A stretch of 63,318 nt of DNA, the filler included, from Sluysia triapertura (Eukaryota): assembly GCA_046118255.1 (NCBI GenBank). It is 5 parts of 5 records of this genome, joined end to end, with 100 filler letters (N's around TTAATTAATTAA, not from the genome) between each part and the next. Parts side by side here need not be neighbours in the genome. Positions count along the whole stretch, not along the records: positions 1 to 11,982 come from JBJNIA010150494.1; positions 12,083 to 26,633 come from JBJNIA010255298.1; positions 26,734 to 38,385 come from JBJNIA010182435.1; positions 38,486 to 50,740 come from JBJNIA010125188.1; positions 50,841 to 63,318 come from JBJNIA010105098.1. The stretch is one strand, 5' to 3'. Shown piece by piece: positions 1,574 to 62,829 of the stretch (within the stretch, counting starts at the first letter, position 1; each line of letters starts with the position of its first letter). Under the pieces are notes generated by a model. It made no database searches. It was not told the origin of the DNA and saw only the letters and a list, made by a program, of their open reading frames with translations. A program made the translations under genes and the position numbers.

Positions 1574-2070
1574 TGTGATGCCACAAACACATACAACGAT
1601 CTTGTTACACACAAGCTTATACACGATTCACAAACAAAACATTTTGATACTTTTCACACATTTTAAAACAATAACATACGGTCAATATATATATTTGAAA
1701 CCTCACAGTAAATTATACTCAAACTCCAACAACAATTTCTATTACTAATACATCGTCATACTCCAAATTCAGCTCAGATTCTTAATTTACCACTTTTAAC
1801 ATAACTGCAAAACATGAAACTTCGAACCATAAAATTTAACAACAAAATTAATGTAACCACCCTAAAATCATAATAACCAAATACGTTTTCTTTTTTGAAT
1901 TAATGTGATCTAATACTTTTTTACGGTATCGTTCCCATCTCCAATAACGCCACTACGGGTCCTGCTATGATTATCATTTTTATTGTTTTTGTTGTACTAT
2001 ACATTTGTCATGCAGCACGAAACATTGTAGTATTTCTGAAATATCCACGGAACCTATACAAACATGACAG
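1574..2070 (+). mobile_element. G-poor terminal arm of cargo cassette D
   Basis: Starts TGTGATGCCAC (variant of TGTGGTGG terminus); C/A-rich and G-poor; shares TGTCATG and GAACCTATAC motifs with arm E (minus strand, 50147 down to ~49810). Confidence 0.45.
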
Positions 2071-2307
2071 AAAAACTAAAAGAATATTTAAATAAAATAA
2101 CCAAAATAAGATTTAAATACAAAGAAAGTTTAAAAGAAATTTCATAAATATTTCATAAATATTAATTTTTGTTTTAATATTTAAATTTAAAAGTAATTTG
2201 TAAAACTAAATTCGTACTCTTTAAAACTAAAAAAGTCCACAGAAAGCGTTTCAGAAGAAATATTTTTATGTTTACCAAAAGTTCACATCAACTTTAAAAA
2301 AATATAA

Positions 2308-2810
2308 ATGTTACAAAGTAGAGCCAAGTATAAGTCACACAAAAACATCAATGCACGCGTTGCAGACTTTGAACAAGTAAATGCTAAAAAGTATATTTGT
2401 ATTTCTTTGCATGATGTCTTGTTAAGTAATTTAGATAATGTACATGAAGTTACTTTTATTTTAAATATTCAAAAATCGGGACTTTGTGTGATGATGATTT
2501 TCAAAATAAATTGTCTTTAAGTTATGCTACACTAAAAGCAAAGCTGAAGGAACGGAAGGCGGCTAAACTAGTTCAAAAAAATAAAAAATCTCACTACAGT
2601 TTTACTCGAGCATGTATTGTTAATCTTTGTGTTTCAAATGCCGTGGATTTACGAGAATTTTACTTTGCTTACGGAAATGCAATCACTTCTTGCGATCAAG
2701 GTTTTAGTTGGAAATACTACTTTGTTCCAGGTTTCAATAATTTTATAAAGCTAAAAATGTTATCTAGTTTTGATTTTTATAACAAATTTTTTACTAATTG
2801 TTTGTACTAA
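2308..2810 (+). pseudogene. Intronless orphan ORF (two overlapping frames, probably one frameshifted gene), cargo of cassette D
   Basis: ORFs 2308-2520 and 2484-2810 overlap; AATAAA just after the stop; no family recognised. Confidence 0.4.
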
Positions 2811-2998
2811 TTGTTCAATAAATGGAATTAATTATTCAATTCAATGATATGATTTTTAAAGGACCTTAAGTCCTTCCTTTTTAGTTTTAATAAAGGTAAT
2901 AAAATTTTGCTGAAACAAATAACATATTTTAAAAATAATTTCATAATAAAGTTTTTAAACAAAAAACTACACTGATGATCTTGAAAAACTTTAAATAA

Positions 2999-4442
2999 TG
3001 TTCTTTTATACTCACTAAGTTTTCCCTTATTCTTTTACCATTTATTCGATTTTTATTTATATTTATAATATTTATAATTTGTTATATATCTTCATGTACA
3101 TTTCTTTAAAGAGATATAATATTATTTCAGAAGTTAATGTTTCCTTAGAAATATTTCCGAGAACAATGCAAGTATTTGCTACTAATAAATCTATGAATAT
3201 ATATTGTGAAGTCATACCTAGAGATCCAAGAATCATAAGATTTATAACTCCAGTGTTCACAATAATAACAGCGATGTCTTACAAAAAAAAATCAATGATT
3301 CTTTTGTTGTTATTGATGGCAATGAAACTAAAGATAACATATGTTTTGCGTGTGAAGGTGGTAAAATTAAAGCAATAACGAAATGTTTTGATAAAATAAA
3401 TGAACAGATTACTTTAAATATCTATCCTGATACTGACAAATTTTTTCCCACCAATTCCACTTAATTTGATTTGTACAATTAGTCCAAAAGATTTAGTTAT
3501 TAAAAATGCAGTAACTGAATTTGGATTCGAAAAAATGAACTATTCGTGTTACTTTCATAGTGATAACAATATTACTATTGAAACAAAAAATGAAATAGAA
3601 ATTTGTGTAGTTTGTTCTCATGAAGTACTGGATCCAATTAATAAGTGTTACCATAAACAAAATGAAACTCTTAAATTAGAAATATATCCCAAGACAATGT
3701 CAGTTTACTTAGAACAGGTCATAAATATATACTGTCTACCGAGTCTACAAGATCCATCAATTATGACCGAAATTGATTATCATTCTACTTTTTACAACAT
3801 AACTTCTCATAATTATAATATAATTAATCAATCATTTATCCAGAATTATGGTCATGATACTGAAAGACTGTGCTTTGTTTGTGAATCTTCTTATACTAAT
3901 TCAACTTCTAAGTGTTACGATAAATTTGGTATGTACTTGTAAATTTTGATTACATGAAACACATGTTATGGAAATATAAAATTTATATATTCTTAAATTT
4001 GATCTTTAAAATTAATAAATAAAGAAATACAAAATGTAATTTTTTAATTTTGAATTAATAATTGGAATATTCCATTAATACTGGATTAATAATAGATTGG
4101 TACATAGATTCTCCAAAAACTCCTTTTCATCTATCAATATGTTCACAGATGTAATGTCTCTGAAGCTTCGCTTTTACATTTTACATTGTTTTGCATTCTA
4201 TAATGGGTACTGCAACATATTGCGATTTAATCGTATATTTCATGAATTTTCCCATTTCAATTTTTCTTCAGATTCTTAATGAGATTACTAATGAGATGTC
4301 ATATTATCCAACTTTAGCATCTGTAAAAGTTTTTAATCCTAGTGCACATATAAGGAAAAGTAATGAAATTATTACTTATTCTTGCAGATCACCTGTTTTA
4401 TTGGTTTCGATCTTGATATATTTTCACCGAATTTTATTTTAA
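2999..4442 (+). pseudogene. Disrupted secreted/surface protein with tandem ~90-aa four-Cys repeats (Ig-like start)
   Basis: Hydrophobic leader ~2999-3095; phase-1 intron 3096-3130 (spliced junction codon is TAA); three repeats LEIFP/LNIYP/LEIYP..C...CxxC...KC(F/Y)xK; compensating frameshifts near 3240 and 3445; phase-1 GT donor at 3929; weaker further unit ~4190-4440. Confidence 0.6.
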
Positions 4443-4595
4443 TATTGTGGTTTCTTAATAATTCATTCATATAAGCACCCATCCACTATATAAAGATTGT
4501 TAACTGTAATGTTAATTGTGGTATTTTTATTGGGCAAATTATTTTACTTCATTTCATTTCTGTTATTTTGGCTAAGCTGCACGAAGAGATTGTAG

Positions 4596-4657
<62 letters not shown>
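4596..4657. repeat. (ATT)n microsatellite
   Basis: Direct reading. Confidence 0.95.
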
Positions 4658-4658
<1 letters not shown>

Positions 4659-4949
4659 TTATAAGTATCTATTTTCATTAACAAAATAAGTTTATTAATA
4701 AGTTTCTACTTACAGTTGAAATAAATAATTGGTTAGAATTCTATGCTAGTACGAGTTGGTCATTTATTCATCTATGCGTAAGTGAAAAGACAATGGAGGC
4801 CACTAAATATCTTAAATCAATAATAGTTTAGAAATATTGATAATACTTTATCAACTTAATTAAGAACGATTCTGTAACTCTTTTAATCTTCTACAAGGTC
4901 CAAATGCTTAATTACAAAAAGATTTTATGTCCTTATTAAAGGGAGGACT

Positions 4950-6287
4950 TTAAAAATTAGATTTTATGGGTTTCTTGAAAACAATAATATAACTGGTCTT
5001 ATAAAAATTACAAAATTTATCATTAAATTTAGCAAGTTTATTATACTTAAAATTTTTATTAACAATTTTGTGTTTAAGGCACTTAATAACTATTACTATG
5101 TGCCTCAGAGGGCGAATTAAACAAAGGTAAGACAAATTGATTGTATTATTAAACACACTAATCATTGTTGAAACCCAAATTTAAATCCTTACGTGGATAA
5201 ATCCTTTCATATTCTCCGAGCCTGGAATTTCCTCGAGTTTGAAATCATTTATTTCATAATTTCTAATAACTATCATTTTACAAAAAATATCTAAATGATT
5301 ATGAGATAATTTAAAATAACCGTTTTCAAACATAGTGATACTAAATAAAGTTATAATCAAGCATTTATTTCTAATACAATCATCTTTGACTTTGATTTCT
5401 ACATAATTATTAAAATAACAGTTTTCATACACAGTGATACTAAATAAAGTTATAATCAAACCTTTACTTATAACACGATCTACTTTAACTTTATTTATAT
5501 ATGTGACATTGCTTTTTATGACATATTCAACTCTAGCATCTTGGATACGTTTAACACCGTGCTTCGGATTAATGAAATAGGTAGTAATTTGATCTTCTTG
5601 GTAAATCGACAAGACAAGTATTGCATCAGCATTCATTATTTTACCAATATAAAATTTTTTAAAATAGTACTAACATAAACAGGAGCTAAATTCTCAGGTT
5701 TTTCTACTCTTTCGGAGTTATTGCTTTCCAGTAAAGAGAGTGGCTTCTTCGAATAACATTCAATGTCTAAACTATAAGACTTCTTAGTAAACATAGTTTC
5801 TTTGAATTTATGTGCGTGGGTGCTGTTCACCACAGAATCAGTACTGTCTTGAAACATTTCGACGGCTTCTTCTTGCGAAGCGTTACCTCCGAATATATCA
5901 TCACTGATTCGATTCACCATGATTATCTGTTTATCTTTAAATTCATATAAACTAATTTCATAGGATTGGAATCAGAACATAATTCGTATATTTGTATTTC
6001 TTAAACAAGATTAAATTTTCGTTTTCATATTGTATATCTCTAAAAAATTCATTTGAGTGAGTAAACTTGACTGCAGCCGAAATGATATAAAACAATTGAG
6101 GTTCAACGTCTGGTAGTTCCAATTGACTTAAATTATTCAAAACTTTCATAGAAATATTAAAATAGGCAAGTTTTTTAAACAACAATTCTAGTATACAGGC
6201 AAGAATCTCTATATCACCAGTTGCCTTTGAATATACATTTAAATTGGATGTTCCAGTTTCCATTTTAAGAAATAAAAAACGTATCAA
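4950..6287 (-). pseudogene. Run of four co-oriented intronless orphan ORFs (likely one decayed gene), cargo of cassette C
   Basis: ORFs 5958-6287, 5636-5920, 5181-5636, 4950-5165; a 33-aa internal duplication (LIITLFSITxxENxYF twice). Confidence 0.5.
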
Positions 6288-6879
6288 TTAATAAAAATGC
6301 ATTATGAATTGTAAACAAAGACAAACTAAATGCGTGAAAATTTTTTGAAAGATCTCTATAATTAAAACAAAAAGAGTATTAACATAAAATCAATAATTGC
6401 TTTCCTAAATCCAAAAAAACTAAACAAACATCCAAAAATCACATTTATCGACTTGGAAATAATTTAATAAAATCTGTCTGCATCAATAAGGTAATGATAC
6501 ACGGAATGATTTACTATGGTTCAATATTTAGCATTTGTGATTTTAAATTTCTCTATGAAAATTTATATTTTATTTTTATATGAAGTATCTAAAATTAACT
6601 ATTATATAAAAATGGTAAAGCGCGGTAATTCTATTCAGATTAGAATTAAATTATGAAAGAAAATTATAAACGCTAAGTTTTATTACATTTTTATTGAATC
6701 ACAAAAGCTCTTAATAAAATAAATGCAATCAAATATGAACCAAACAATATTAGTGATACAAATACTTATGATTATTTAATTAAAAATTTGTAGCAACATT
6801 TCGGAAAATTAACAGAAATAAGTTATTTTCAATTCTGATACTCGTAAACCTTTCTTTTTCATTTTTTTTGAATATTTTC

Positions 6880-7274
6880 CCAATTAAAATGAAGTATGTT
6901 ACTACGTTATGAACAGTAAATGTTAATGTCCAAGTTGTTGCAACAAAAAAGAAATACATAAAGGTGTAAAATGAACTAAAGTGATGAGAAAGTCACTTTG
7001 CTAATAATTAATATCACGTGGTACAAAAAATACACTAAAAGAGTAGTGTTGACGTGATGATGACATGAAGACAAGTGTTACTTATATATCAATAAACAGA
7101 ATATTAAAAAATGTTAGAGTTTATTATACGTCTATGTTTTGTTAATGATGAAAAGTGTGATAGTGTAAAGATTACGAATGGACTTTATTTTTGTGTGATT
7201 TTTATAATGAAGTTTGTGTGGTTTTTGATTAAAGTATGTGTAGTGCATGTAATCTATGAGGCTGTACCACCACA
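6880..7274 (-). mobile_element. G-poor terminal arm of cargo cassette C
   Basis: Minus strand begins TGTGGTGGTACAGCC at 7274; C/A-rich; shares TTGACGTGAT motif with arm G (~61068). Confidence 0.5.
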
Positions 7275-8016
7275 AATAGGTCTACAACTACTTTAAAATT
7301 GTGAAGATAAAATGAAAGAAAGCATTTCTTAGTAAATTCTTTATTAATATTATTCGTGACCATCATTTTGTAAGATAAAATCATTAGAGAATTTTAAATT
7401 GTAATATAATTTAATACTTCTTGAATTTTGTATAAAAACTTTTCTAAAATTGTATTTATTGATTCCTTTAATTGGATCAAAAGTAAATTATATTAAACTA
7501 TATAATTTATATTTAATTTATAACTAAAATCTTACAAAGATATTTGGAATATTAAGTTTGATAAAATTATTCCTTCTCACAGGTTCTATTTATGTAGAAC
7601 CTTAATAAAATCAAATTGATAATCTCGCGGATACGCGGAACATTAACAAGCTTATAAGTAGTTTTAAAGTCTCATTAATCTTGCCAGAAAATCAACACAT
7701 TGTTATTGGAATAAACTTTGGCAACAGTTGTGCAAATGGTAACCCTCTAAGTAAAATGACCTCCATCATCATTTTTATTTACGTTCTTCAAAATTCTACG
7801 GACAAGCCGTAACACGTAAGACTGGGATCGTAGGTGGACTCACCTCTGTTTCTCTATTTTACTGATTGTTTTATACAAAAAAATCTTTCATTCAATGTTT
7901 CCAAGCAAGCTTATGTTTCTAAGACCTCTATTATTTGGCCTTCTGGTGTCTATAAATAGAAATTATCAAATTATTATCCAATAATGTATATAGTTTAAAT
8001 TTGAACATTTCAAAGA

Positions 8017-8330
8017 TGGCCAACCTTAAAATTTAAATTACCACTTCACATAGAATATCGCATTTTTTATTTTTGCATCTTGCTTTCTCAGATTAATTTA
8101 AAACATTAACATTTTAAAACATTTTTATTCACTATTTCACAACATCAGACTCACAATTTACACCTCAAATTATCAAATTTCTATTTCGAAATTAATCCAA
8201 AACATTTCAAGTTCACATTCCTTCAACACTCACATATTAACGCGTCTGAAAAATATTAAACTCATACTCTAAAACCATTCTAAACATTCTAAACATCCTA
8301 ATCCAAATAAAATTTCATTTAAATTAAATT
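8017..8330 (+). mobile_element. Arm B copy 1 (terminal TGT eroded)
   Basis: TGGCCAACC...CTCAAATTATCAAAT...ATTAATCCAAAACATTTCAAGTTCACA...; clearly homologous to the minus strand of 59490-59880 and 62470-62829. Confidence 0.8.
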
Positions 8331-8562
8331 TATATATTATAAGAAAATAAAGATTTACGTAATTTTTATTTATTATTTTTTTAAAGAAAATAAAGTTTTT
8401 GTGTCTAGAAATACAAAGAATTGTGTATTAATTTCATTATTATATAATTTTAAATCATTTTATTGTAATTAGTATTATGACTATTTTTATTTTTTATATA
8501 TTTTAGTATTATTTTCGTTATTATTACGGCATTATTAAATTTCATTATTATTAATTTTATTT

Positions 8563-8563
<1 letters not shown>

Positions 8564-8625
<62 letters not shown>
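8564..8625. repeat. (ATT)n microsatellite in the AT-rich spacer of cassette B1
   Basis: Direct reading. Confidence 0.9.
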
Positions 8626-8626
<1 letters not shown>

Positions 8627-8830
8627 CTACATTATTAGTATTAACATTATCATTATCATTTTAATCATTATTCTTGCATCATTTAAACTGGCGTTTAATC
8701 GACAGCTTAATTAAAAACATTTTTACATTACTTTATCAACTGTCAATTGATGACACTTACTAACCCAATTAATACAGCATTCTACACTTTCTACCACATA
8801 ATTATTTCATTCGATCATTTTAGTGTGAGT

Positions 8831-8960
8831 GGACGTCCAATCGTTTCTATTGTTGTACATTTTATTTCACAATAGACTAGACGGCCAATCAGAAGCCACT
8901 TAAAATCAACAAATTCTTATCTAATTGCTATCTATTTGGTAAATAGCACACTATAAAAAG
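8831..8960 (+). promoter_or_regulatory. Double CCAAT + TATA promoter module of cassette B1
   Basis: GGACGTCCAATC 8831-8842, GGCCAATCAG ~8883-8892, TATAAAAAG 8952-8960, ATG at 9042; homologous to 59007-59076 (minus). Confidence 0.6.
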
Positions 8961-9041: not shown

Positions 9042-10092
9042 ATGATTAGACCAAGTTCTTCAGAAATAAACAAAAATTCCAATTTACGTAAAAAGTTAAG
9101 TATATTAAAATGTTTTATCAATAATCAACTAAAGTCATCATAATCATTAAGCAATGTCAAATTAGATTATTTTACAGACCTCGATAATTATAATTCATCT
9201 TCAGTAATAGCAGTAACTTCTGTTCAAATATATATATAAAAGTTTGCTACCATAAATTCAACTTTGAATATCAATCTAAATTATTGACTATGTTATAGAG
9301 TTATTTGAGAGAGACTCATAATCAAGTTCAAAAAAATTTTATTTTAAATACAGATCGTGGTATTCATATAAAACAAATTGAATTTATTTTCTTTATGATC
9401 AATCATAATAGTACCTTTTATCAAAATGTTTCGGACGAAATTATAAACAAAATTCTAAATATCGTGTCTTTGCTCACAGAGAAATCTTTAGAACATCATG
9501 AAGTTAATTTAAAATTCATATTACTACAATCAATGTTGTACATAAATACTTTATTTATAACAAATAATATTTCATATGTTAGACAATTATGTAGATCATT
9601 AAGCATCCAAATCAAACAGAATTAATGTACGATGTTCAGAACGTTTGCGTCACAAACGGTAATATCATTAATCCATACTATGAAATGACAGACAATGATA
9701 CAAGTATCTCATCATCTCAATTATCAAGTAATGCAATCAAATTCGAACTTCTCACCGAAGACGTTGGCCAACGATATAAATTCAAAAAAATAAATATAAT
9801 GTATAAAGAAATCAAAACCTTACAACCGCAACTCGACGTTTTGATTAAAGAAAACCAAAATAATAAATCTGATGCAAGTATCGTTTCTCTTAATCAAAGA
9901 AGATACGTCACTAAACTAATATCTATTAGTTCAAATTCGACTTTGGTCACACATTACTGTTTAGCACAGTGCCTCTCCCAGACTAATGAATTAGGTTTAT
10001 GTTTGAAATTTGGTCAAAGCTGCAGATACTACCATGACGTTAAAGAAATTCACCATGATAAAATTGGAAAGTCCATTATACTCAACACATGA
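9042..10092 (+). pseudogene. Decayed intronless orphan ORF with C-terminal CCCH zinc-finger-like motif, cargo of cassette B1
   Basis: Broken frame from ATG 9042, then ORFs 9305-9625 and 9625-10092; motif CLSQTNELGLCLKFGQSCRYYH. Confidence 0.5.
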
Positions 10093-11982
10093 ATCGCTTA
10101 GATTTCCTCCTCGATACATTGAAGTTTAAACAATTTAGTGTGAATCTTGCAACCGTCAAGATACAACCAAGATATATTTCACCAATACTCTTGAAAACAA
10201 TTTAATATTCAAAGTAAATTTTAAATTTTATTATACACATGTAACTTATTTTGATCAATTATATTTAAGGAATCATCGGATCATTGACCTTATGGCGTGT
10301 TTAAGTTGCAATCAATGCCCTCAGAACGTAGAATATTTAATGACATTAAATATAAATATTAAATCTTTGTGTCTAAAAATAAATTAGTGTTCTGTCGTCA
10401 TCTTTATTTTTCAATTTTAAATAAATTTTGTGAATTAAGCAAATTAAATTTAACTTATTTGTTAAGTCGCAATAATGAAAATAATTTTAACATAATATTC
10501 GTAAATTGTAATAAGATCTGTAATTTCAAATCATTAAACAAATAAACGTTCATAACTTACTACCAAACCCACTAAATACAAAAATAAAAACTTTGATTTT
10601 CTCTTTCTGATTCATAAATTCAATAAAAAACGATAATAAAATAAATAAATTGAATATAAATTTACTTGTAAATTGCACAATAATACTTGCTTAGTGCTAG
10701 ATCGCGATTATAACAGATTATGTATTGTCTATGATTTTATGAATCAATTGGTTGGATGTAATGGCAAAGAATTTAGAAGATAAATGATCAATTTGTATCG
10801 GTTGGAGGGAAAATTACAGGAATCTACAATTATCTCTAAGTAAATACTGTGCAAAGTATTTGAAATATGCACAGCCTTATCCAAGAAAAAACTGTCCTTC
10901 AAACTTTCTACATATGAACACATTAACAAAAATTTAGACATAAGTCAGTATGAAATTAAATTCAGTAGTCGAAAACAATCGGTCAAATCAATACATCAAT
11001 TAACTCAAGATAAAATTCAAAAACTCACTTTCGAATGGAATCAGATGGAAAACCTGCCATACAATTGCGTATTATCGTCTGTATTTTCTATGCAGAATAT
11101 TTATATAACTTTGATAATAAATAATGAATCATTATATTGTTATGATATAATATTTAGTGTAATAATTTTAAAATTTTTAATAATGTTTGATTTTAATTTT
11201 ATGATGTAATTTCAAATTTTATAGTTGCTTTATATTTATTATTATTATTATATTTTAAAATTATACTATTCTAAGTTATTATTGTAAAATTACATTATTA
11301 TATTATGGGGTTTTTCATTTAATTTAAGCTTCTTGTCATTTAATTTAATTCGGATTTTTAGGCTTTAAGTTATAAATGAAAACGCAGAAGTTAATAATGA
11401 TGTAACAAAACAACAATTACAACAATCATTGATTAATAGCCTGTTTAAATATTATTGATTAATATTTATTGGTGACTATCAAAATACATTTTTATATAAT
11501 TATGTGCATTATTATTGGTGACTAACATATGTATTATGTAACTATCTATACAAAATTATTTGGATATTACATTTTTGTATGTGAGTTTTAATAGTTGTTA
11601 ATTTTATAAATTTTTAATTTAATTAAACTAACGTGATTGTAAAATAAAATAAATTTATAAAGCAAAATGTTTTAAATTAATTTTATTAATTGAAACTATA
11701 TAAGCATATACTTTTGCAATCAAAACACAATTTTTATAAATACAATGTTAATAATCGTTTTATAAAAATTTTGCTTAACATTCAAAGATTATTCAAGGAT
11801 CTCCATCCAGTTTCAATTTCATCACGATACTCTTTACCTTTAACATTTGTTTCGAAAGCTACGTTAGTTTAATTATTTTTAGGACGATATCTTAGTGTAT
11901 CATAGGTAAAATCTGACTCAAAATCATTTTTTAACTAATTTCCTGATCTTATCACAGATCAAACGAAAAATATATTTAAAAT

Positions 11983-12082
11983 NNNNNNNNNNNNNNNNNN
12001 NNNNNNNNNNNNNNNNNNNNNNNNNNTTAATTAATTAANNNNNNNNNNNNNNNNNNNNNNNNNNNNNNNNNNNNNNNNNNNN
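11983..12082. other. Assembly spacer (44 N + TTAATTAATTAA + 44 N)
   Basis: Six-frame stop linker between N runs, identical at four places. Confidence 0.97.
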
Positions 12083-26558: not shown

Positions 26559-26560
<2 letters not shown>

Positions 26561-26624
<64 letters not shown>

Positions 26625-49890: not shown

Positions 49891-49944
<54 letters not shown>

Positions 49945-50147
49945 TTTACAGTACATGACACGTAAGAGAAGGTAAGTTTTAGGGAAATTTCATTATCATA
50001 TTATTTTATTTTATTTTATTTAAAGTTTAAGGATTTTATGTATTGAACTATTTGAATGTTTGAGGATTTAAATTAGAGTTTGTTATGCATGTGGTGTTTT
50101 TGTAGTAGTTGTCAATAAAATTTTATGTGAAAGGATGAACCACCACA
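49191..50147 (-). mobile_element. Cassette E: G-poor arm, (TAC)n tract and decayed ORF
   Basis: Minus strand begins TGTGGTGGTTCA at 50147; (GTA)n 49868-49943; broken reading frame ending in ORF 49191-49382. Confidence 0.45.
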
Positions 50148-50740: not shown

Positions 50741-50840
50741 NNNNNNNNNNNNNNNNNNNNNNNNNNNNNNNNNNNNNNNNNNNNTTAATTAATTAANNNN
50801 NNNNNNNNNNNNNNNNNNNNNNNNNNNNNNNNNNNNNNNN
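50741..50840. other. Assembly spacer
   Basis: N run with TTAATTAATTAA linker. Confidence 0.97.
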
Positions 50841-51684
50841 TTTATACATTAAAGACAAATATTAAGTTTAAAAATTCAAAGTCAATACATTCTCTAAAAT
50901 ACCATTCAAAACATTTCTCATCTCAAATCAAACCCATAACATCCATATTTTGTTTCAGATTTTTTATTATTATGAGAATGTTTTTCTATTAAAATTAATC
51001 TTTATGCGTTCGCAAAAAACTAAACAAAATGGTCGCTTATTGAAGTTGCTTAATGACCTAATTGTAGGCACCACTTTAGGATTTAGGTATTTATTTATTA
51101 AATATTGTCACAGGCGCATTTCATGTCCTAAAATACTATAATAATGTTTCATAATGGATACAAATAATTCACAAAATACACTACAACAATTTAGTGTACG
51201 AAGAATACAATCGTAAGATTATGACATATTCAAATAATCGAACTTTTCTTTTTATTTAATTTTTCATCAAATTTTAATTCTAATAATTTCAATAATTTAT
51301 TAACAAACGTACAATATTTTACCTTTAGTTTATAAATAAATGACTTTTATACGACCATTAATATTAACATAAACATTAATATAAATACTAGCTATAAAAG
51401 TAACATGATTATTAGGCCAATTACGACGACAACGGAAACATTTATTTCTAGGTTGTCATCACAATCCCACAAAATAACTTTAAAATGTCATAATAACTTT
51501 AAAATTACTTAAAACTATTTAAAACTATCAAAAAATAAATTAAAATTAATTAATTAATATAAAACGCTTTAAAACCATTTATTAATCTTTAAAATTACTT
51601 AAAAAAACAATTATTTTCTAAAGAATAAATTATTTTTGGAAAATAAAATTTCTAAAATAGAAAATTAGTTTCTAAAAATAGTAT

Positions 51685-51724
51685 AGAAGCTTCTAGAATG
51701 TTCTAGAATATTCCAGAACATTCC
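51685..51724. promoter_or_regulatory. Heat-shock element array (8 contiguous alternating nGAAn units)
   Basis: aGAAgcTTCtaGAAtgTTCtaGAAtaTTCcaGAAcaTTCc; TATA-like GTATATAG ~51750. Confidence 0.7.
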
Positions 51725-54700
51725 ATCGATTTTTCTTGGATGATGACTAGTATATAGACTAGCATCAATACAATGAAAATCGCCATTTTAGAAAAACAAA
51801 ATTTTCAATTTCATTCGGTTTAATGCGCAATTCGAGAAAATTGTGAAATTTTAGCATTTGTTCACAATTTTTCAGTTATCAATCGATTTGGAGACTATTG
51901 ACCAGACAATATCAATTTCCATTTTTGGCAATTTATATATGTTTAATGGCGATTTTAACTTTCGAAGTTAATATCATAAAACACAAGCAAATTTCATATT
52001 AAATTTATAAAGTTTTTAAGTTCCCAAATATATGGAGGGTTGAAATCTACTCAAACTATATTAGCACTAGATTAAACGCTCACGGAACTTTAATCTTAAA
52101 AATAATTATTTTTGCCTTCTTAATCTACTATCTTAATTGATTAGAATTTTTGTTTTTTTTGAAAAAAAGAATAAGTACTTTTGTGATGTTTAATTATTTA
52201 ATTAATACTATTGAGCGATTATATGACCCTCTACCATTAATTTGTTACATAGATATATTACTTTTTAGGTAATCTTTTAACTTCTTTGTTACAGAAGCGC
52301 CAACGATACGTTTTAAGACGTTTACTATAACGGGACCCTGCTCAAAAATATTTTGCCATAGGTTAGAATTAAGAAAAACCACGGCATTATCAATGTCAAG
52401 TAAACAAGATATTGATATTATATTATACGTTTATTATATTATTTATCAACTTCGTGTCAATTAAACACGAAGTATATTATACGTTATAATTTTGTTCAAA
52501 ATTTGATGAGAATGTCATTATCGTTATTTACAGTCACTAAAAAACTATAATAAAATGTTTTAGGATGTTGAATAGGAGAAAAGTGTCATATGTTTAAGAC
52601 TTACGTGATTTAAAGTGAAAATTTTATTAACTTTGTTATGAGTAAATGTTCTGTTATGGGATTATCTTTATAATAAAATTGACCATAGATTTATGTCTTG
52701 TTTAATCAAGGAAAATTTTAACAGGTACGAAATTATGAATTTTGTTAAAATAAATTGGATTCAGATATTTTTGTTCTCGAATCTAATGTGATCGTACGAT
52801 TATGTGACTTCGTTGACATTCACAAATACCAATGTAAAACTTAGAAATATTTACGAACGAAAGTGCATATGAATATGACCAAATGTTATAAATTTAATTG
52901 TTGTATAACTGATTCAAAAATTCATTTTTCCAATTCGTTAATACCGAATTCCTTTTTACACCGCTTTTTATTGTGCAATATTTTGTGTGAATAAAGGGTT
53001 ATTGTAAGCCTTATATTTTATATCATTATGGCGCGAAGAAAAATATATTGCAATTATCGGATTATTATTATTATTATGAGATTTATAAATTAGAATTTGA
53101 CAATTATTTTCGATATGGAATTGAGTACAATATGTCATTCCATATTATTAGTTATCCGTACCTAATTCTGGATCGTTTCTTTAACTGGTACAATAAAATT
53201 AATATTTCCTTCCATTATATTTCATACGTTCAGTTTAGCTTCTAGAATCTTACTAAGTACTCAAATAGTATTAAGTGAACTTCAATTTCGCTATCAGGAA
53301 TTTAAAATTGTTAGAAATAAATAATAAGATTGTAGAAAATTTCATTTTATTTGATAAAAATGAAAGAAAAAGGGTGTGATTAATTAATTACGTTGATGAA
53401 TAAAATTAAGTTAATTAAAATGTATCATTATCTTATACTTTTTTTGTATCAAATCTACCTCATTGCATTAAAAAAGCGTTTTAACTATCAGTAATAGAAC
53501 TTCATAAATTTATACTTTAATTTTCTGCTATTTTATTTACATATCATATCTCTGAGAAGTACATATTATTTTGTAACTTATTCCAAATCTTAAACTAGAA
53601 AAACGAAATTATGTTTAAACACAGAATTTCTTATTGTTATTGTTATTTCAATTATTTTAAAAGAAAATCATTAAAATTTTTTGAAAAATTAATTAAAATG
53701 ATACAAAACAAAAATCATTTTTTATCTAAAACTAGGATTTTTCAAATTTAAAAAGTAAATTTCAAATTAACATTTAAACATACAATGTTCTACAAGTATA
53801 AATTTTAAACTGATATAACATGAGAAATATTCATCCTACCATTAGTTTAAATATTTGTGCTTTATTTAATTTAATTGTATTGTTTACTTGAATGTCAATA
53901 AATTGAAATACATGGCTTATTTCAACATTATTGAAAAAATGGGAATCACAGGGCAGATATTCGTAAAAGTTATGCGGAGTGGTAGAGTTTGACATTAGTA
54001 ATGTAAAAAAATGGTATAAAGATATTATAGAGGATTTAATGATGGATGTTTAGATCACAAAGACAAAGACTGACGAGGGCAATTTTAGAAGTTTAAAAGA
54101 TTGGAATTTATTAATGAAAATTTTGTGTAAATTTCGTCAGTTTAAAACCATTAACGAAAAATATCAACTTTTAATAATTGAAGTTTTTTTAAAGAAACAC
54201 TAATTAAAAGTGTTTAATTAGAAGAGCACTTGACTCTAATAAAACAACAATAAACAAGCGTCTAAATATGGAACAAATGAGGTTGATTCGTTCACCTCAT
54301 GAGAATCACCGATTTTTCTACAGCTAAAACATTCTTTCTTTAAATTTACCAATAATGAACGAAACATAGGCGTTACATTCTGATATTTTGGCACGATTTA
54401 TACAAAATGATTAACGATATCATTGAAGTAATGATTTAATATTGTACGTAATCTAATTAAAATTTGTTCAGCTAATTTTAAAGTTACTAAATCTTTCATT
54501 TTTCTGATTTTTTAAATTCAACAGTACAATCAAAAAAACAATCAATTTCACTATCTAGAGACAAAACATGTTATCAGATTTTGATTATTGATATAATCTT
54601 GACAATTTGCGACATCTAATATAGCAGATTCATTAAAAATTTTGCAGGTGTTTTTAAGTGATTGTAATTTAGAAGTTTATCTGATTTAATTAAATTGATA

Positions 54701-55484
54701 AATAACTTTGAAAGTCAATATCTTGTGGATTGATAGTTACAAATTTTAATTTAATTTTTACTGTAGCTAGGTTACTTTTAATATTGATTAATTTAATTTA
54801 AATAATTCAATTATATTACTTTTTATCAAAGAAACAGCATCATTAACGCCTTCGACCTACGAGATAACTTGTAGTAGGCAGTGAACGTGTTATATTTAAG
54901 CTCTAGAACATTAATATCATTTTCAATAAGACATCGACACTGAACTCTTGCATTTCTCATTTGCTTTGCACAATTTTATAAATTTGACTGTTCTTCATCT
55001 TTTAGTTTTAGTTTTAATTCATAACTTTTTTGGTTAATGTTATTAATTTGTGGTAATATTGTCATTTTTGGTAATTGTATCTTTATGTTGATGAATCAAC
55101 AAAATTAAATAGTTTTTAAATTAAAAACTGAATAAAATTGACGATACGAATAACTAATACAGTGTCTTGAGCATCAAAATAATTATTGCAAGCGTATATG
55201 AACTCTTCTTTTGCTTTCTGTTTCACTATTGTTCCCATTTAATTCATTTGTAGTACTGATTTTTGATAAATGAATATTGACATTTGTATTATTAATAGAA
55301 TTTATAGAAGTTATATTATCATTATAGCATCATTTATTTTCATCAAATTGAGTAGTTATTCGTGATAAATGTAACCCAGAATCATCTTTATTAATTGGCA
55401 TAAAATCTTCAATTATTGATCGTAATAATTTTGTTAATTGTAATGCATTGTGATTAAATAATGGATCACAGAAAAAAGGGTATT

Positions 55485-56320
55485 TGTAGTGGTCAACATT
55501 TATAACTTACAATTTAGATACAACTATTTTAAACCTAATCTCATTAAAATATCATTTTCTCAACAATTATATCTTTACTTTACAACTATATCATCACAAA
55601 TGATACAAAACATTCCACAATCACAATACCTCACTAACTTATATTCACCAACAGATCAAATTGTGTCTCAATCATTTCCAACTTAATAAACTTCTACATC
55701 CAGCTCAAACAATTCATAACATTTACTCACTAAATACTTCATCAAACAAACCACAATCACAACATAAACTTCACAATTCACAAATATGACATTCAAACAA
55801 CATTAACAATTACCTCAGAAACATAGGCTACCTACTACTAAATCCTCAATCAACGACAACAACTTAAACTCATTTCATGTATAAACATCAAAACAAATAC
55901 TCGTAACATCATAATAAACATTAAAACCTATTTTGCAATCATCAGTCAAGATCAAAATAACTTCAACCTTTTCAACAAGCATTTTAAACTTAAATCTTTT
56001 AATAAACATTTTAAATCTAATGCATAGATCTTGTCCTCAAATTACTAGCTTCAATAAATTATAATAATTTATTTTAACATTTTTCAATTCAGTTACAGCT
56101 CTAACCATTACATTTCTAAAATAAAAATTAAAAACAAGTTCAAGATAACTTCAAAGAATTCATTAGCTAACTGTGAAACAACACGAAAGTCAACACTTAC
56201 TGTACCTTATCACAGTTTATCATTTACTCTTTTTCTTCTATTTTATTTTTATGTCAGAAATCAAGATAAAGACTAAGAAAGATCTTGTATTTCAAAGTTT
56301 TTAAAAAATTAAAGATTTAT
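55485..56320 (+). mobile_element. Arm A copy 3
   Basis: Starts TGTAGTGGTCAACA, identical to the 24642 terminus; colinear with the other two A arms; extreme G depletion. Confidence 0.85.
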
Positions 56321-56506
56321 GCTTTATTTTTTTATCTTCTAATAATAATAACAATAATTTCACCATTTTTGTTATTGTTATTATTATTATTTTATAATAA
56401 TCAATACAGTCTTTATTATTATTTCGCCATCTTGTTTTTGGTTATGTAAATAAAAATTAATTAAAATATAAAATAAATTGAAAACAAGATGAATAAACCG
56501 GTTGCT

Positions 56507-56700
56507 ACCAGTATCAACACTGAGAGTCAATGTTACGTCGACATTGAGCTGTCAGTCTTGATGATGGTCAGCTGGCAGTTCTTATTCTTCTCGATCTCGT
56601 TTACTTGATATCAACCAATCAGATCGCTCCACAACACAAAATACAAAATTAACAAATTATTCACATCAGATTGGGTGAAGCAATTAAAAAGTTTTAATAC
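56507..56700 (+). promoter_or_regulatory. Hairpin + inverted CCAAT module of cassette A3
   Basis: Imperfect hairpin 56507-56568; CCAATCAGA at 56615; GATTGGGTGA at 56669; TAAAAAGTTTTA core shared with the B1 TATA region. Confidence 0.6.
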
Positions 56701-56831
56701 ACAATAATTAATTCAAAGAGTACGAAAACAGAAAAAATTTTATTATAATTGACTGGAGCTAAAAAATTAGAGAAATTAGTATACTCAATAAAAATTTTCA
56801 TTTTTGCATTTCCAAGTGGTGAATTATTTTT

Positions 56832-57983
56832 TTGAACGAATTCATCTACAATTTTCGATTTCACGAAGTAGTAGTGAACCTAATGATAAAGCAATTTGAT
56901 ATACATGAAAATCAAAATCTTATAAAGTTCATAAAGATTATCGAATCAATAATTCCTTTTAGAATAATATTATTAGACAATTACGAAGTAACGATAAAGC
57001 GATTTGATATACATGAAAATCATAATGTTATAAAGTTCGTAAAGACTATTAAGTTTTTCAGGTTAATGACTTTACCTGATACAGTTTTATCAAGTAACGA
57101 TGAATTTAAAATTAATCAAGCAAATGTTCACAAGAACTGTGACGTTACAAAAATTGTAAAACTAACAATCTCTTTTTACACAATTTTACTAATTGATTTT
57201 CAATTAATTACGAGAGAACAAATATTGTCGAATAACTCCGTTTTACGAAATAATGATAATCTCACGGAAAATAAGATCAAAACCCGTGTCCAATATTTCA
57301 TTATCGAATCAATCGAAAGGAATGATAGTTTTCATCGATTAGTTTGTAGTCGAGAGTACAATCTTACGTCATTTATGAACTATAACCTTCATAAAGAAAA
57401 TCTTGAAGGAATTAAGGCAGGTATCAACCACATCTCAGTATACTTATCTCAAGGTAATGTTTTTGTATTAAAATTATTTTATTGTAACTATTACGTCGGT
57501 TATAGACTTATCATTTATAGCAGTTTTATTATTTCAGAAACTGACACAATGAGGATCCTGAAAAGGAGGAGGTGTATAGAAAAAGTTTCAAAATTCAAAA
57601 ACATTTTTATTCACATTGTAATATATAGTCATTATTGTTACTTTTACGAATTTGATTTTAAACCTGTAAAAATAAGAAATAATCCTGACATTTCATCAAT
57701 TTTCAATACATCGAAGATAAAATTTATAGATAAAATTATAATGACAATAACCAACACTCATAAAATCTGCATCAGACACAACGATAAAGTTTCTAATATA
57801 AGCATAAAATTATGTTCAAGAGTCATCTATATGATGATAACAAATGTAATAAGCCCTTTTTCTCTCGAAAACTTAACAAGTTTTTGTAGACAAATCAAAA
57901 TTTGCATAACAGATAACAAATATATCAAATTAATATCGAATGAAATTAAATACAAGGCCATCCGAGACAAAAATAGGTGTTAG
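56832..57983 (+). CDS. Intronless 383-codon orphan ORF with three N-terminal ~40-aa repeats, cargo of cassette A3
   Basis: Uninterrupted frame, very unlikely by chance at this AT content; track start is TTG, first ATG ~56883; repeats IKQFDIHENQNLIKF / IKRFDIHENHNVIKF / INQANVHKNCDVTKI. Confidence 0.6.
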   Translation: MNEFIYNFRFHEVVVNLMIKQFDIHENQNLIKFIKIIESIIPFRIILLDNYEVTIKRFDIHENHNVIKFVKTIKFFRLMTLPDTVLSSNDEFKINQANVHKNCDVTKIVKLTISFYTILLIDFQLITREQILSNNSVLRNNDNLTENKIKTRVQYFIIESIERNDSFHRLVCSREYNLTSFMNYNLHKENLEGIKAGINHISVYLSQGNVFVLKLFYCNYYVGYRLIIYSSFIISETDTMRILKRRRCIEKVSKFKNIFIHIVIYSHYCYFYEFDFKPVKIRNNPDISSIFNTSKIKFIDKIIMTITNTHKICIRHNDKVSNISIKLCSRVIYMMITNVISPFSLENLTSFCRQIKICITDNKYIKLISNEIKYKAIRDKNRC

Positions 57984-57991
57984 ATTAACGC

Positions 57992-58840
57992 CTACAAAAA
58001 AACGTTTGCAAACCAAAGACACCATACGTATGTCGTTATTAATTCAGAAAAGTTTGCTAAAAGCATAATAATTTCATTGTACGACACGCCATGGAGTATT
58101 AGCTCTCGTTCTAATACATCTTTGAAATCTTTCCATTGTAGATAATCTACACAATCAGCGTTATCATTATACAATTTAATTTTACGAATAGCAACTATGT
58201 AAAGTCGATTTTTACAATTCAAAAATTTTCTAACTAAGGTTTTAATACTTGGTTTAGCAGGTTTAGATTTTCCTTTATCATTAGTGAGAGTTAGGTCATT
58301 TAAGCTTTTGTTCATACTACGTGCAGGACTTGCTGATAAATGAGAACCATTAAACACATTATGTTCTTCTGCATGTTTACGTTCAACTTCATAATGATAT
58401 CAATTTGTATTTTTCAATAAATCAATCTGCCTTTTAATTTTAGAATCAATAATAAGCCTAATATTTTCATCTTGAAGCCCTTGATAATTAACAAATTTTT
58501 CTAAAAAAATATCATTTTCAATTTCAACCGTAAAATCAGTTTTGTCATTATCATCACAATCGCGCATGGTTTGATTATTATTATTATCGTTTCCATTCAT
58601 ATAGTTCTTAATACATGTATACATCTTGTTAGAACTAGAGCTTACTAATTTTGTCACATGTTTTGAATCATAATTTTCTTTAACAGCTAACTCAATATCA
58701 TTTTCAGTGTATTCACAAACGGATGAATGATCTTCAATATCAGGCATGGTTATAATTCGTGGTAAAACAGATGCAGCACTAGAAGTAGTAGTTATAGAAT
58801 CACGGACATATTTTCGTTCATAATGATAATAAGTTGTCAT
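57992..58840 (-). pseudogene. Intronless ~282-codon orphan ORF with one in-frame TGA, cargo of cassette B2
   Basis: ORFs 58400-58840 and 57992-58357 are in the same frame, separated only by TGA at 58400-58402. Confidence 0.6.
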
Positions 58841-59006
58841 ATTAGTAAAATGATTATGATATCGACACTTTGATTTTTTAATTATGTTTTAATAAATTAT
58901 ATATAATTTATTTCACGCCTGTAACGGATTTTATTTTTAATCTCTTGAAACGTAATTTTGTAATTAATTTTTAATGTAGCTAACAATTTCTGTTGTAATA
59001 TCTTCT

Positions 59007-59076
59007 ATGATTGGGTGTCCAGTAAAAGCAACTAACAGCAAAATACAAAAATAGAATTGATTGGACGTCCAATCAA
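59007..59076 (-). promoter_or_regulatory. CCAAT module of cassette B2 with a perfect 20-bp palindrome
   Basis: TTGATTGGACGTCCAATCAA 59057-59076 and GATTGGG ~59009-59015; homologous to 8831-8892. Confidence 0.65.
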
Positions 59077-59489
59077 ACCAACTGCATCAGTCTTAATTAA
59101 TAATTATATTGAATAAATACATGCCTGCACCATGCAGCTATAAACAGATGACAATTGAGAAATGGTGACAAGTGATTCAATTCATGTAGTTGGTAACAAC
59201 AAAATCAATTTTAGTACAAATGATCTGTCTAGATTGACAGACATGAAATTAAATTTTATGTGCAACTAAGAATGATGATAATAATAATGCTAATGATAAT
59301 AATTATGTACAATAAAATAATAATATAAAATAAAATTTTCACATAAACCCTATTCTTTTCTTTACATGATCTTTTAATTCTTTAAAATAAAAATTTCTTA
59401 AATAAAATTCTTTTGGCTTAAATTGTTTAATTTCTTTTCTTTATTTTAATTCTTAAGAATTCTTTAAGATATAAATAAAATTGACTTAA

Positions 59490-59880
59490 ATAAAATTCTA
59501 TTTTGATTAGAATGTTTAAAATGGTTTTAAAATGTGAATTTAATGTTTTTCGCTGATGTTAATGATTGAGTTTTGAAGAATTGTGAACTTGAAATGTTTT
59601 GGATTAATTTTGAATAGTACATTTGATAATTTGAGATGTAAATTGAAGTTCTACTGTTGTAAAATTGTGCATTAAAATATTTTAAATGAAATTTGAAATG
59701 TACATTAATGGTTTCGAATGTAAGTATAATTTTAATTTTATGAGATTGTGGATTTAAAATGTTTTGAAATGTAAAAAGGTTTTAATGGATCTGAAAAAGT
59801 AAAAAAGTAAAATGTTAGTAAATGTGATGTCTCAAGTAAAATAATGATTTAAATTTTAAATGAAAAGGTTGGCCACCACA
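59490..59880 (-). mobile_element. Arm B copy 2
   Basis: Minus strand begins TGTGGTGGCCAACC at 59880; colinear with 62470-62829 and 8017-8330. Confidence 0.85.
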
Positions 59881-60239
59881 ACACAATATAAAACATAGTA
59901 AAATTATTATTAGAACATATTTAATCAAATACATAATATAAATATCAACTAGTTCATTTTTAAAAAAATCGATACGATAAATTTTATTATATATTTCCAA
60001 CGCTATTAATTAATATTAATTTTAATTTGTTTTATATAATTTCACGTTAATCATTCATTTATGAAGTGCTAATAAATACAAATATGAAAATTTCAATATC
60101 TTATAAAGAAAATAAATTTATAATTTAAAGGTCGTTTAGATCATGTTTCACAGATGAACATTTATCAGTAATTCAAATCAAATATCAAATCAAATGAATT
60201 AGATTAAAATATTAATGTTAAACTTAATTGAAAAAGTTC

Positions 60240-61086
60240 ATCTTAAACGGCATTTTTTGTAGAAAAAGTTAATAAATATGTTAAATTGTCGTTGATTAAC
60301 ATACGCATCCATCAGTAATTACATTTTCCACAATTTCATTAAGAAATAGTAACGAATTGAAATATAGTTGTAGATGACGACATGGCAATAGAGACGTAAT
60401 TTGGATTGGACAGTTGTGAGTAATTTGCTCCTATTAATAGTTTCAGTATATTGAAGTCGTCGATAAGAGATCGATGTGAATTTTTTAAAGTTACAATAAC
60501 ATAGTCCCATTACTTTTGATGATACAATCAATATATTGTCTTTCTTTTCCATTAAATGACGAGTACTTTAATCAACCAATGCTTCTAATTCATTGCATAT
60601 CTTATAATAAGTAGGATATTATTGAATATATTTGATCTCAAATGAAACGACAATATTTGATTTCATGGTCAATTTATAAAACCAATTACTAGAAGAATGT
60701 CGAATTTAGCATAGAAGTAAATTGACCAGATTCACACATACAAACAAAAGAGTAAATAGAAGATAAATAATATAATTATTATATGTTTTAATATGATGTT
60801 AATGATATTGTGATATTATAGGAATTATTATATAATAGTCATAATGATGACAACAATACTATAATTATTATATATTTTGATACGATAGTGTTGCTGATGT
60901 GATATTATTTTAAGAATTATTATTACAAATGGATTTATAATATAATAACCATAACTCGTGACAATTGTGTACAATGTCTAGGTTTGTCTTTTGAATGAGT
61001 CAAGTAGTTTATTTGGTATTCTGTGTATGTAAGAAATGTTCCTGTGTGATGGAGTGTGCTTGTGATTTTGACGTGATTTCCCTACA
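60240..61086 (-). mobile_element. Cassette G: short G-poor arm and decayed single-frame ORF
   Basis: Minus strand begins TGTAGGGAAATCACGTCAA at 61086; one frame from ATG ~60739 through ORF 60319-60552 with a few in-frame stops. Confidence 0.4.
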
Positions 61087-61109
61087 CTGTCAAACTTCAT
61101 TAATTACCA

Positions 61110-61410
61110 AAAATAGAAATTTGATTTATTATCAACCATCATTTCTTTTTATTCTGCTCAATTTATTTTTAATTAAATTACTTCTCACATTAAAATAACA
61201 ATCAACAATAACATACATAAAAATAATGAATTTAATCTCACTTTTTAGGATTCAATTGATTTTAGATTTTTCACACCCAATTTTCTAATGAAAAATATTT
61301 TAAGGTTCTTATTCTCTAACGAACCGTTTTATAAACATTTCGAACTCACTTATAGATTATTCTCTTTCATAGCAATCATCTCATATTCCGTTCATCATAT
61401 TCAACATTCC
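61110..61410 (+). repeat. Dispersed repeat H, copy 2
   Basis: Colinear with 43750-44066. Confidence 0.75.
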
Positions 61411-62135
61411 ATAAATAAAATTAATTAAAATTTGACTTTTCTCAATATTAAGGCTTTCCTTGCATACACAATTTCAAATTCAACATAGCATTCCGTATTC
61501 AAAAGTTATTCATAAAAACGTACTTTTTCTTAATTAAGTTAGTTAAGATTTTAATTAATTAATCTATTTTTAGACTTAATCTTATTATATTTTTAGAGGT
61601 TTTATTAAGATTCTAAATTTTTTTAGTAGTTTATAAGGCATTCAAGAGGCTCTAGATGTTTCCACTTTCACCTCTCTGATTCCTTCTTCATGTTAATTGT
61701 TACTATAATAAACTTATTGTTAATACTAATAACAACGATTTTATTTCTCAACTATTTTAAAGATTTTAGATACTTTATAAAATTACTCGAAGAACCTGAC
61801 GCTTATCAAGGTCCCAATGTTCACAAGCTCTAAGGTACTCTAATACCTTCAAAGATTTTTCAAGTCCATTTCAAGCTTCCACAAGATCTCAACACCTTAT
61901 ATGGGTCTTTGAAATTCTAAGGTATTCTTCAGCTGCTAACTTTATTATAAATGTTTTTACTTTCATGATTCCCACTCCGACAATGCTTATGATGCTCAAT
62001 CTATCACTTCCTATCAACTCTTCCTTCATTTTGTAATTCTATATCTCTTACCCATCTCCTAATTCACAGTTGGACAATCGCAACATCAAATCCAACAAAC
62101 AAATCAAGTTACAAATAAATTCACATTGATCTGAT

Positions 62136-62829
62136 TGTGGCGACATTTTTAATTAGATGTTGGGTTTCAGATCCTTAATTTTAATGCATATGAGACTATT
62201 TGATAACATAAGAACAGTGAAGTTATTTTTAGAGTATTGAAATAGTATTGTTAATGATAAATTATAATTTACAGATATTGAGTTATAAAAATCCATTGTA
62301 ATATTGAAAAAATGTTTGATAAATTTTATCTTAAAACTTTTTATTTTTACTTTATTAAAATTGCATTAAAAACAACAATGTAGAAAGAATTGATAAAAGA
62401 ATGCTTAATGAAGATAATACATACCTAAAGATGTTAAAGAAATGTCATTTTGATTGCAATGTTTAAACTGATTTTGGAATATGGTTTCAAAGTTTTTCAC
62501 TGATGTTAATGGTTGAATGTTGAAGAATTGTGAGCTTGCAATGTTTTGGATTAAAACTTGAAATACATATTTGATAATTTGAGATGTAAATTGTGATTCT
62601 AATGTTATAAAATTGTGGATTAAAATGTTTTGAATGAATTTTAATGTACATTATTATTAGTCTGAATGTGAATATAATTTTAATATTATAAAGTTGTGAA
62701 TTTAAAATGTTTTGAAAAAATAAAAATAAGGTTTTAATGGATATGAAAGATAAAATGTAATATGTTGGGAGATATGATATTTTATGTAAAATAATAATTT
62801 TAATTTTGAATGAAAAGTTGGCCACCACA
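62136..62829 (-). mobile_element. Short cargo-less TG...CA element containing arm B copy 3
   Basis: TGAT|TGTGGCG at 62136 ... GGCCACCACA|TTAT at 62829 (3/4 TSD match); arm B homology 62470-62829. Confidence 0.6.

Follow-up and report, generated by a model that had tools for sequence, protein, structure and literature searches.

TGT-ended repeat arms with pieces of host genes behind predicted promoters in the genome of Sluysia triapertura

Introduction

Gene capture by elements with terminal repeats is common in plants but has been reported as rare in animals, where it is mostly single-copy, short and non-coding; in 100 animal genomes, 370 cases of Pack-TIRs are on record, mostly hAT and Tc1/mariner, with a median insert of 224 bp, 13.4% exonic and 4 multicopy (PMC8277862). 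In fungi, a DNA transposon has amplified a housekeeping gene (PMC6710886). Here we analyze a stretch of 63,318 nucleotides, filler included, from Sluysia triapertura (GCA_046118255.1), which we call the window, and describe a family of repeated, G-poor arms that end in TGT and stand in front of co-oriented open reading frames (ORFs), the cargo, some of which derives from host genes. We found no published description of this arrangement in a search that covered subscription journals thinly, and the arms and cargo are assigned to no named family.

Like Pack-TIRs and Pack-MULEs, in which host sequence lies inside a terminal-repeat element and multicopy or chimeric forms are possible (PMC8277862), the elements described here contain host genes (TCTP, GSK-3 and an SH2 protein). 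They differ in having at least three identified coding cargoes in 63 kb, frames of 0.6–1.1 kb in sense behind a predicted promoter, and TGT ends; matching inverted repeats of one family and a target-site duplication were not found. GingerRoot/IS3EU elements are of integrase type, carry gene fragments, have often lost their transposase and in some cases end in TG...CA (PMC6839031), but they have inverted repeats of 100–150 bp, 6-bp duplications and mostly TA ends (PMC6839031), and neither such repeats nor the duplication was found here. GingerRoot fragments also keep introns and, in the same account, are never whole genes (PMC6839031), whereas here no intron was seen and almost all of TCTP is present. 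Ginger1 and Ginger2/TDD are similar in their TGTNR ends, a pattern given for both Ginger and Gypsy, and in their element size of 2.6–7 kb (PMC2836005); of their hallmarks, the 40–270 bp inverted repeats, 4-bp duplications and DDE gene were not found in the window and the ends alone are shared, and the available text of that source does not mention host cargo (PMC2836005).

Results

Repeated arms with TGT ends

An earlier note on this DNA, made from the sequence alone, had described about ten cassettes in which a fixed arm and promoter precede different orphan genes. All 11 termini that it quoted are present at their positions, by which we name them here (Table 1). The pattern TGTRGTGGY, picked after the data had been seen, occurs 8 times in the window compared to 0.45 expected, and 0 of 100 shuffles reached 8; six of these sites are named ends, and the other two (47626 and 49843) have no G-poor arm. 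Nine of the 11 ends carry TGTAG, TGTGG or TGTGA; the remaining two, 8017 and 47176, are eroded, and all unbroken ends fit TGTNR. The G-poor arm recurs at 10 of the 11 ends, which fall in the lowest 0.0–2.6% of GC skew in the window. End 32556, at the 39.5th percentile, has neither a G-poor arm nor a long same-strand frame, and its proposed membership in the arm family is withdrawn.

Two families are supported by alignment. The family A arms (55485+, 24642−, 47176−) share 60–66% identity across 1081–1100 aligned bases, from the TGT end to just beyond a CCAAT box, and the family B arms (8017+, 59880−, 62829−) share 72–78% identity across 320–410 aligned bases. Self-BLAST at stringent settings gave up to 185 bits for A and 345 bits for B, compared to at most 47.3 bits in 5 block shuffles; a permissive version was dropped because shuffles scored up to 198 bits. 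Arms 7274, 50147 and 61086 resemble A and B in end and composition alone and do not align with them, and arm 1574 is weakly B-like (z 4–6). Just outside 62829 lies a possible eroded second B-type end at 62962–63030(−), to which contig joints from 62807/62809 to 62962 point.

A CCAAT module at the inner edge of the arms

The sequence CCAATCAG occurs four times in the window, each time in a predicted arm promoter (8885, 23609, 46121 and 56615). Arm 59880 has a related double CCAATC instead, and the double CCAAT module is common to two B copies (z 14). The CCAAT module that the earlier note had placed before the ORF is thus present in the three A copies and two of the three B copies. Homology among the A arms, taken by segment, has z values of 7–24 in the arm, 2–10 in the 200 bp before the CCAAT, 0.4–5.5 in the first 100 bp past it and below 3 farther on, and in all five CCAAT-bearing copies the first ATG follows a CCAAT by 160–343 bp. 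Because transcription usually starts 60–100 bp after a CCAAT box, homology would end at about the predicted transcript start. We take this to be a putative promoter of the CCAAT type, a type bound by NF-Y. Two A copies also have a short inverted repeat, CATCAG...CTGATG, before the CCAAT box (46190–46225 and 23645–23700), a possible hairpin or paired binding site.

Long sense frames behind seven ends

Behind 7 of the 11 ends (the three A ends, 8017, 59880, 7274 and 1574), a same-strand stop-free stretch of 162–386 codons lies 0.6–2.6 kb inward. The lengths were matched in 0 of 300 shuffles for each copy, and 3% of 226 overlapping background windows, cargo areas excluded, reach 160 codons. All seven long frames are in sense orientation; on the opposite strand the longest stretches are 57–77 codons, except over a facing partner's ORF. 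The co-oriented ORF of the earlier note therefore holds at these seven ends and is weak or absent at 50147, 61086, 62829 and 32556, with a frame of 100 amino acids (aa) behind 50147 that was reached in 19 of 300 shuffles and a longest own frame of 82 aa behind 61086. Four cargoes are broken. Comparison of 149 cargo pairs gave a best z of 4.2, none of ten cargo ORFs is in the protein collection as an exact sequence, and single-sequence structure predictions for two cargoes, at pLDDT 28 and 38, were too poor to interpret.

Three cargoes are pieces of cellular genes

Pfam, PDB and protein searches match three cargoes to TCTP, GSK-3 and an SH2 protein from other species, and for these cargoes the label "orphan" is wrong. 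The proposed capture of unrelated cargo is supported, since three arm types each hold a piece of a different, unrelated cellular gene, and these matches rule out descent of all cargo from one transposable-element or viral protein. All three identified cargoes are in sense, and no intron was seen in ~1.1 kb of recognised sequence.

The TCTP copy was recovered in two parts, both above the Pfam cut-off (positions 27–125, E 2e-12; positions 129–164, E 9.9e-6), and by PDB search (E 5.6e-9); by eye, its first 26 positions are presumably also present across two more frameshifts, judging by the TCTP motif. Ahead of the copy lies a 101-aa ORF (5958–6263) without assigned identity, and behind it the frame of the copy continues into unrelated sequence that extends to 5181 and holds a 33-aa duplication. 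A word search with the TCTP piece gave 2 candidates and no close relative.

Residues 53–150 of the 198-aa frame behind 47176 match human GSK3B 48–145 (E 6e-9), with 32 of 98 residues identical (33%), counted from the alignment. Human GSK-3 ranks first for this ORF and other GSK-3 entries are weaker; the Pfam scan missed the kinase, and the GSK-3 C-lobe is unmatched in the ORF. A simulation of neutral decay on a host exon left 100 codons free of stops in 5% of runs when identity had fallen to 60%, and in 0.7% at 50%. Selection on cargo is suggested solely by this unbroken frame at 33% identity, from which the distance to the true parent could differ.

Searched against 1.84 billion representatives, the cargo behind 59880 had a single match (P0122, E 3.7e-10), a protein of 470 aa from a 1473-bp contig, whose own SH2 domain is intact (Pfam E 3.5e-11). 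Cargo codons 129–164 and ~165–253, which directly adjoin, match P0122 residues 16–50 and ~168–262, respectively; ~115 residues of SH2 domain and linker are missing, and most of the SH2 domain is deleted. We take P0122 as a cellular gene, although in a relative it might in turn be cargo.

The 366-aa ORF behind 55485 had no match by word search (0 of 2037 candidates at E ≤ 1) or in Pfam, NCBIfam, PHROGs, PDB or viral contigs; a VPS13-like assignment (Atlas 0.82) was rejected, its score being no better than that of shuffles. The cargo behind 24642 may be remotely related to this ORF: in tblastn it gave E 0.009 and ranked first among 387 window chunks, although the score was reached in 301 of 3000 block shuffles. 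For the same cargo, a motif resembling that of HAD phosphatases (Atlas row 4, score 0.78) was unconfirmed by profile searches. The 9042–10384 cargo matches Pfam zf-CCCH_UNK at E 0.002–0.012, under its cut-off, and the 2308–3942 cargo had no match in Pfam and protein searches. With host-derived pieces, not new genes, in at least 3 of 7 cases, the proposal that the cargo is a source of orphan genes does not hold for these.

Arms are abundant and cargoes are repeated

Contigs of one DNA run were aligned to 50841–63318 at 80% likeness; the run may be the source sample, as a 2850-bp contig matches without difference. Depth in this tool is not a copy number and is used here only for the statements that arms are very abundant and cargoes repeated; the rows listed comprise 40 of 665 variants, 12 of 39 indels and 8 of 47488 contig pieces. 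Single-copy contigs have depths of 9–20, and bins across 52505–55416 sum to 71–237. Across 55485–59880 the bins are 80141, 30739, 4460, 1188, 390, 552, 1352, 1563, 948, 5164 and 17200, with flanks of 82 and 222, a U-shaped profile in which the arm A bin (55417–55832) reaches 80141, the arm B end 17200 and the middle 390–1563. Bins over the 366-aa ORF, which is modestly repeated, have depths of 390–552, with 2–5 contigs per site among the rows listed. The SH2 cargo is clearly repeated, with as many as 65 contigs covering a single site and other copies ~86–97% alike, and the deleted form has itself been copied, because two other contigs (~86% and ~97% alike) cross the deletion point. Arm 62829 has a depth of 8406, with a single-copy contig starting at 62803, across the end, and arm 61086 a depth of 24145–29986 in 84–109 contigs at 60988 and 61015. 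The mobility proposed in the earlier note is thus supported by high arm copy number and raised cargo depth in the DNA run.

The frames of 55485–59880 converge, with stops 8 bp apart, and the segment may form a single unit with two ends; at least here, the earlier view of one-ended cassettes may need amending. A variant at 57912 in 5 contigs (at least one reaching 57989) and an indel at 57996 in 3 contigs suggest that some other copies also join both cargoes. A joint of 56484 to 59674 in one contig, with a short side of 21 letters, was too weak to use.

These observations bear on an unlikely alternative, in which the arms are high-copy repeats of an ordinary kind and the cargoes are processed pseudogenes made by a long interspersed nuclear element (LINE) beside or in them, some carried passively. 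The window does hold a relic of a LINE-type reverse transcriptase (14067–14330) and a TCP-1 fragment (246–524), most cargo is broken, and no target-site duplication was found. Against this, an ATG 160–343 bp behind the CCAAT in 5 of 5 copies and sense orientation in 7 of 7 long frames are too regular, homopolymers of A or T reach 10 bases nowhere in the window, depth is raised over cargo and not over the flanks, and the GSK-3 piece is unbroken despite its low identity to human GSK3B.

Table 1. Arms, cargoes and other features of the window. Positions count along the whole 63,318-nucleotide stretch.
Feature	Position	Strand	Remarks
Arm A copy 1	55485-56720	+	TGT end, G-poor arm, AT-rich linker, CCAATCAG at 56615
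Arm A copy, eroded end	46050-47176	-	CCAATCAG at 46121
Arm A copy	23540-24642	-	CCAATCAG at 23609
Arm B copy	58990-59880	-	TGT end 59880, conserved arm 59486-59880, double CCAATC at 59064 and 59014
Arm B copy, eroded end	8012-8900	+	(TAT)n linker, double CCAAT at 8837 and 8885
Arm B copy without cargo ORF	62434-62829	-	Opposite a facing D arm
G-poor arm, TGTGGTGG end	6950-7274	-	No relative in window; no CCAAT found
G-poor arm, weakly B-like	1574-2000	+	Opposite facing 7274 arm
G-poor arm, TGTGGTGG end	49700-50147	-	Behind it short frames only, at most 100 aa
G-poor arm	60750-61086	-	High copy in genome; back to back with arm D
Arm D, TGTCAAA end, G-poor	61088-61720	+	Absent from the earlier note's list
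Arm D relative	43733-44066	+	Self-BLAST
Arm D relative	~16892-17349	-	Self-BLAST
TCTP copy	5550-5950	-	Behind 7274; profile positions 27-164 of 164, two frames, no insertion
Cargo ORF, 198 aa, unbroken	45319-45915	-	Behind 47176; 45481-45774 matches GSK-3 N-lobe
Cargo frame, 282 codons	57992-58840	-	Behind 59880; in-frame stop at codon 147; SH2-protein match
Cargo ORF, 366 aa, unbroken	56883-57983	+	Behind 55485; 36-aa internal duplication; no parent found
Broken cargo	21958-23404	-	Behind 24642; stop-free pieces of 203, 113, 95 and 96 aa; no profile match
Broken cargo	9042-10384	+	Behind 8017; pieces of 108, 165 and 82 aa; possible CCCH zinc finger
Broken cargo	2308-3942	+	Behind 1574; repeated Cys-containing module
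Calponin-family gene, myophilin/transgelin	~27868-28480	-	Host gene, one short intron
Coiled-coil-like coding regions (two)	28896-29745, 37505-38042	+	Host genes; one with short introns
TCP-1/CCT chaperonin fragment	246-524	-	Pfam E 3e-4; outside every named arm
Decayed LINE-type reverse transcriptase	14067-14753	+	Pfam RVT_1 E 2.8e-4 (relic 14067-14330)

Host genes and other repeats in the window

The window has a GC content of 24% and consists of five contigs joined across gaps at 11983–12082, 26634–26733, 38386–38485 and 50741–50840. Each gap holds TTAATTAATTAA between two runs of 44 N. Since this linker is artificial, neither order nor distance can be relied on from one contig to the next. 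The calponin-family gene is closest to tapeworm myophilins (59–61% identity; cestodes in 5 of the 6 best rows), from which we infer that this is animal DNA with a flatworm-like host. Short introns are present in host genes of the window. The TCP-1/CCT fragment at 246–524 may be either further cargo or an ordinary retrocopy.

Arm D is the most abundant repeat in 50841–63318 (bin depth up to 1.1 million), and a single base separates its end at 61088 from that of arm 61086, the two standing back to back. A repeat family E lies at 38620–39271, 44067–44700 and 19326–19727, with two copies 74% alike and an end at 39271(−) of TGTGGTA. Arm D at 43733 continues directly into E at 44067, a joint that is possibly a 1-kb two-ended deletion derivative. 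Another high-copy repeat, at 51257–52504, reaches a bin depth of 94577 and has a cluster of TTCTAGAA-like motifs at 51690–51725, which we take to resemble heat-shock elements. A family of tRNA-derived short interspersed nuclear elements occurs at 42116–42278, 36242–36405, 36509–36613, 4–99 and 27388–27480, with Rfam tRNA matches within its copies at 42191–42261 and 36518–36596.

Discussion

The family of repeated arms is real, abundant, gene-capturing and mobile; its carrier enzyme is putative, and its promoters are predicted. With a probability of roughly 0.55, we read its members as non-autonomous, TGT-ended elements of Pack type that capture copies of host mRNAs behind predicted inward promoters and whose movement, in trans, is probably due to an integrase-like enzyme. 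Each arm of 1.0–1.3 kb would combine an enzyme-binding end with a predicted CCAAT-type polymerase II promoter, and a reverse-transcribed copy of a host mRNA, or of part of one with a deletion or fusion, would be set right behind this promoter by template switching or gap filling. Two facing arms would form the copied unit, as in 55485–59880 and perhaps also 1574–7274. Sub-families would keep different cargo, some of it staying open while diverging, and most inserted copies would decay. The lack of introns in the recognised cargo, its sense orientation and the fusions point to an mRNA origin.

Several results weigh against this reading. Four of the seven long cargoes are without a firm parent, and although no insertion interrupts TCTP 27–164 or GSK-3 48–145, intron loss relative to the parents is only probable. 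The absence of a transposase or integrase from the copies, reported in the earlier note, was confirmed: a Pfam scan that took in 218 segments of the window found none, and no gag or polymerase, with the proviso that domains split into pieces of <36 codons in cargo or <55 codons elsewhere could escape it. A target-site duplication was found in 0 of 8 facing pairs at 4–9 bp, the true pairing of ends being uncertain, and the 8 pairs showed none above chance at 4–30 bp, a range that includes the 15- or 25-bp duplications that TGT-ended IS481EU can make (PMC10045372). Of their 13 terminal bases, A and B have 11 in common, with z 1–4 over 400 bp, and thus no inverted repeat of Ginger size. The link to integrases drawn in the earlier note is not borne out, since TGT ends are its sole basis and neither a target-site duplication nor an enzyme was found. 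Searches with the arm patterns gave no match in metagenome or viral contigs. In the DNA run, non-repeat bins reach 261, so that the depth of 390–552 over the 366-aa ORF is only ~2-fold above the highest of them. Two other contigs with the B cargo stop matching left of 58071 and 58102, indicating that the SH2 cargo also occurs in other contexts, and synonymous changes account for 1 of 11 variant sites in two ORFs (among the 40 of 665 variants listed), which gives no sign of recent purifying selection.

It is possible, though doubtful, that the arms are instead parts of long terminal repeats (LTRs), either their promoter regions or solo LTRs, of a large Ty3/Gypsy element resembling Burro of planarians, with cargo acquired by template switching. 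The imperfect terminal repeat of 11 of 13 bp fits LTR ends better than it fits Ginger repeats of 40–270 bp. Intron-free, truncated cargo, mostly in sense and sometimes a chimera of two genes, is the outcome of LTR-mediated retroposition, and such retrocopies can be re-amplified (PMC5131818). Burro shares a likely flatworm host, in line with the tapeworm-like calponin gene of the window, and has host-like accessory genes of cell death and signalling, including anti-apoptotic domains (PMC6431247). Burro exceeds 30 kb, however, and encodes a gag-pol polyprotein (PMC6431247), and next to the arms in the window no fragment of gag, pol or an integrase was found. In LTR-mediated retrocopies, cargo replaces internal ORFs between two direct LTRs (PMC5131818), whereas here it begins near the point where transcription is predicted to start, and a second direct repeat was not seen; within contigs as broken by gaps, self-BLAST found no direct-repeat arm pair flanking any cargo. 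A solo LTR should also show a target-site duplication, and both A and B have a predicted inward promoter and cargo of their own, a symmetry that a single LTR would not be expected to show at its two ends.

Compact, convergent, intron-free ORFs with predicted promoters at both ends would also suit the terminal remnants of a larger virus-like element of Polinton/Maverick type with host-derived accessory genes, and host genes can reach DNA viruses through LINE-made cDNA (PMC9578705). We regard this origin as very improbable: Polintons end in 5'-AG with 6-bp duplications (PMC6839031), neither of which was found at these TGT ends, no polymerase, capsid or ATPase match occurs in the window, and no relative was found in viral contigs.

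Beyond the Pack-type reading, we consider more tentatively that these are undescribed TGT-ended expression vectors, with inward promoters at both ends, into which host mRNAs are routinely inserted at the start and whose ORFs (TCTP, half a kinase, an adaptor without its SH2 domain) are kept open and remodelled for the benefit of the element or of carrier stem cells. If true, this would amount to a standing factory of lineage-specific signalling genes in an animal. Three identified host genes lie in sense behind arms in one 63-kb window and, by extrapolation, the genome could hold hundreds of captures or more. If capture proceeds via mRNA at the element's promoter, it provides a testable route from conserved genes to orphan-looking ORFs, and such capture would explain genomes that seem rich in orphans and annotation inflated with diverged kinase and signalling paralogues.

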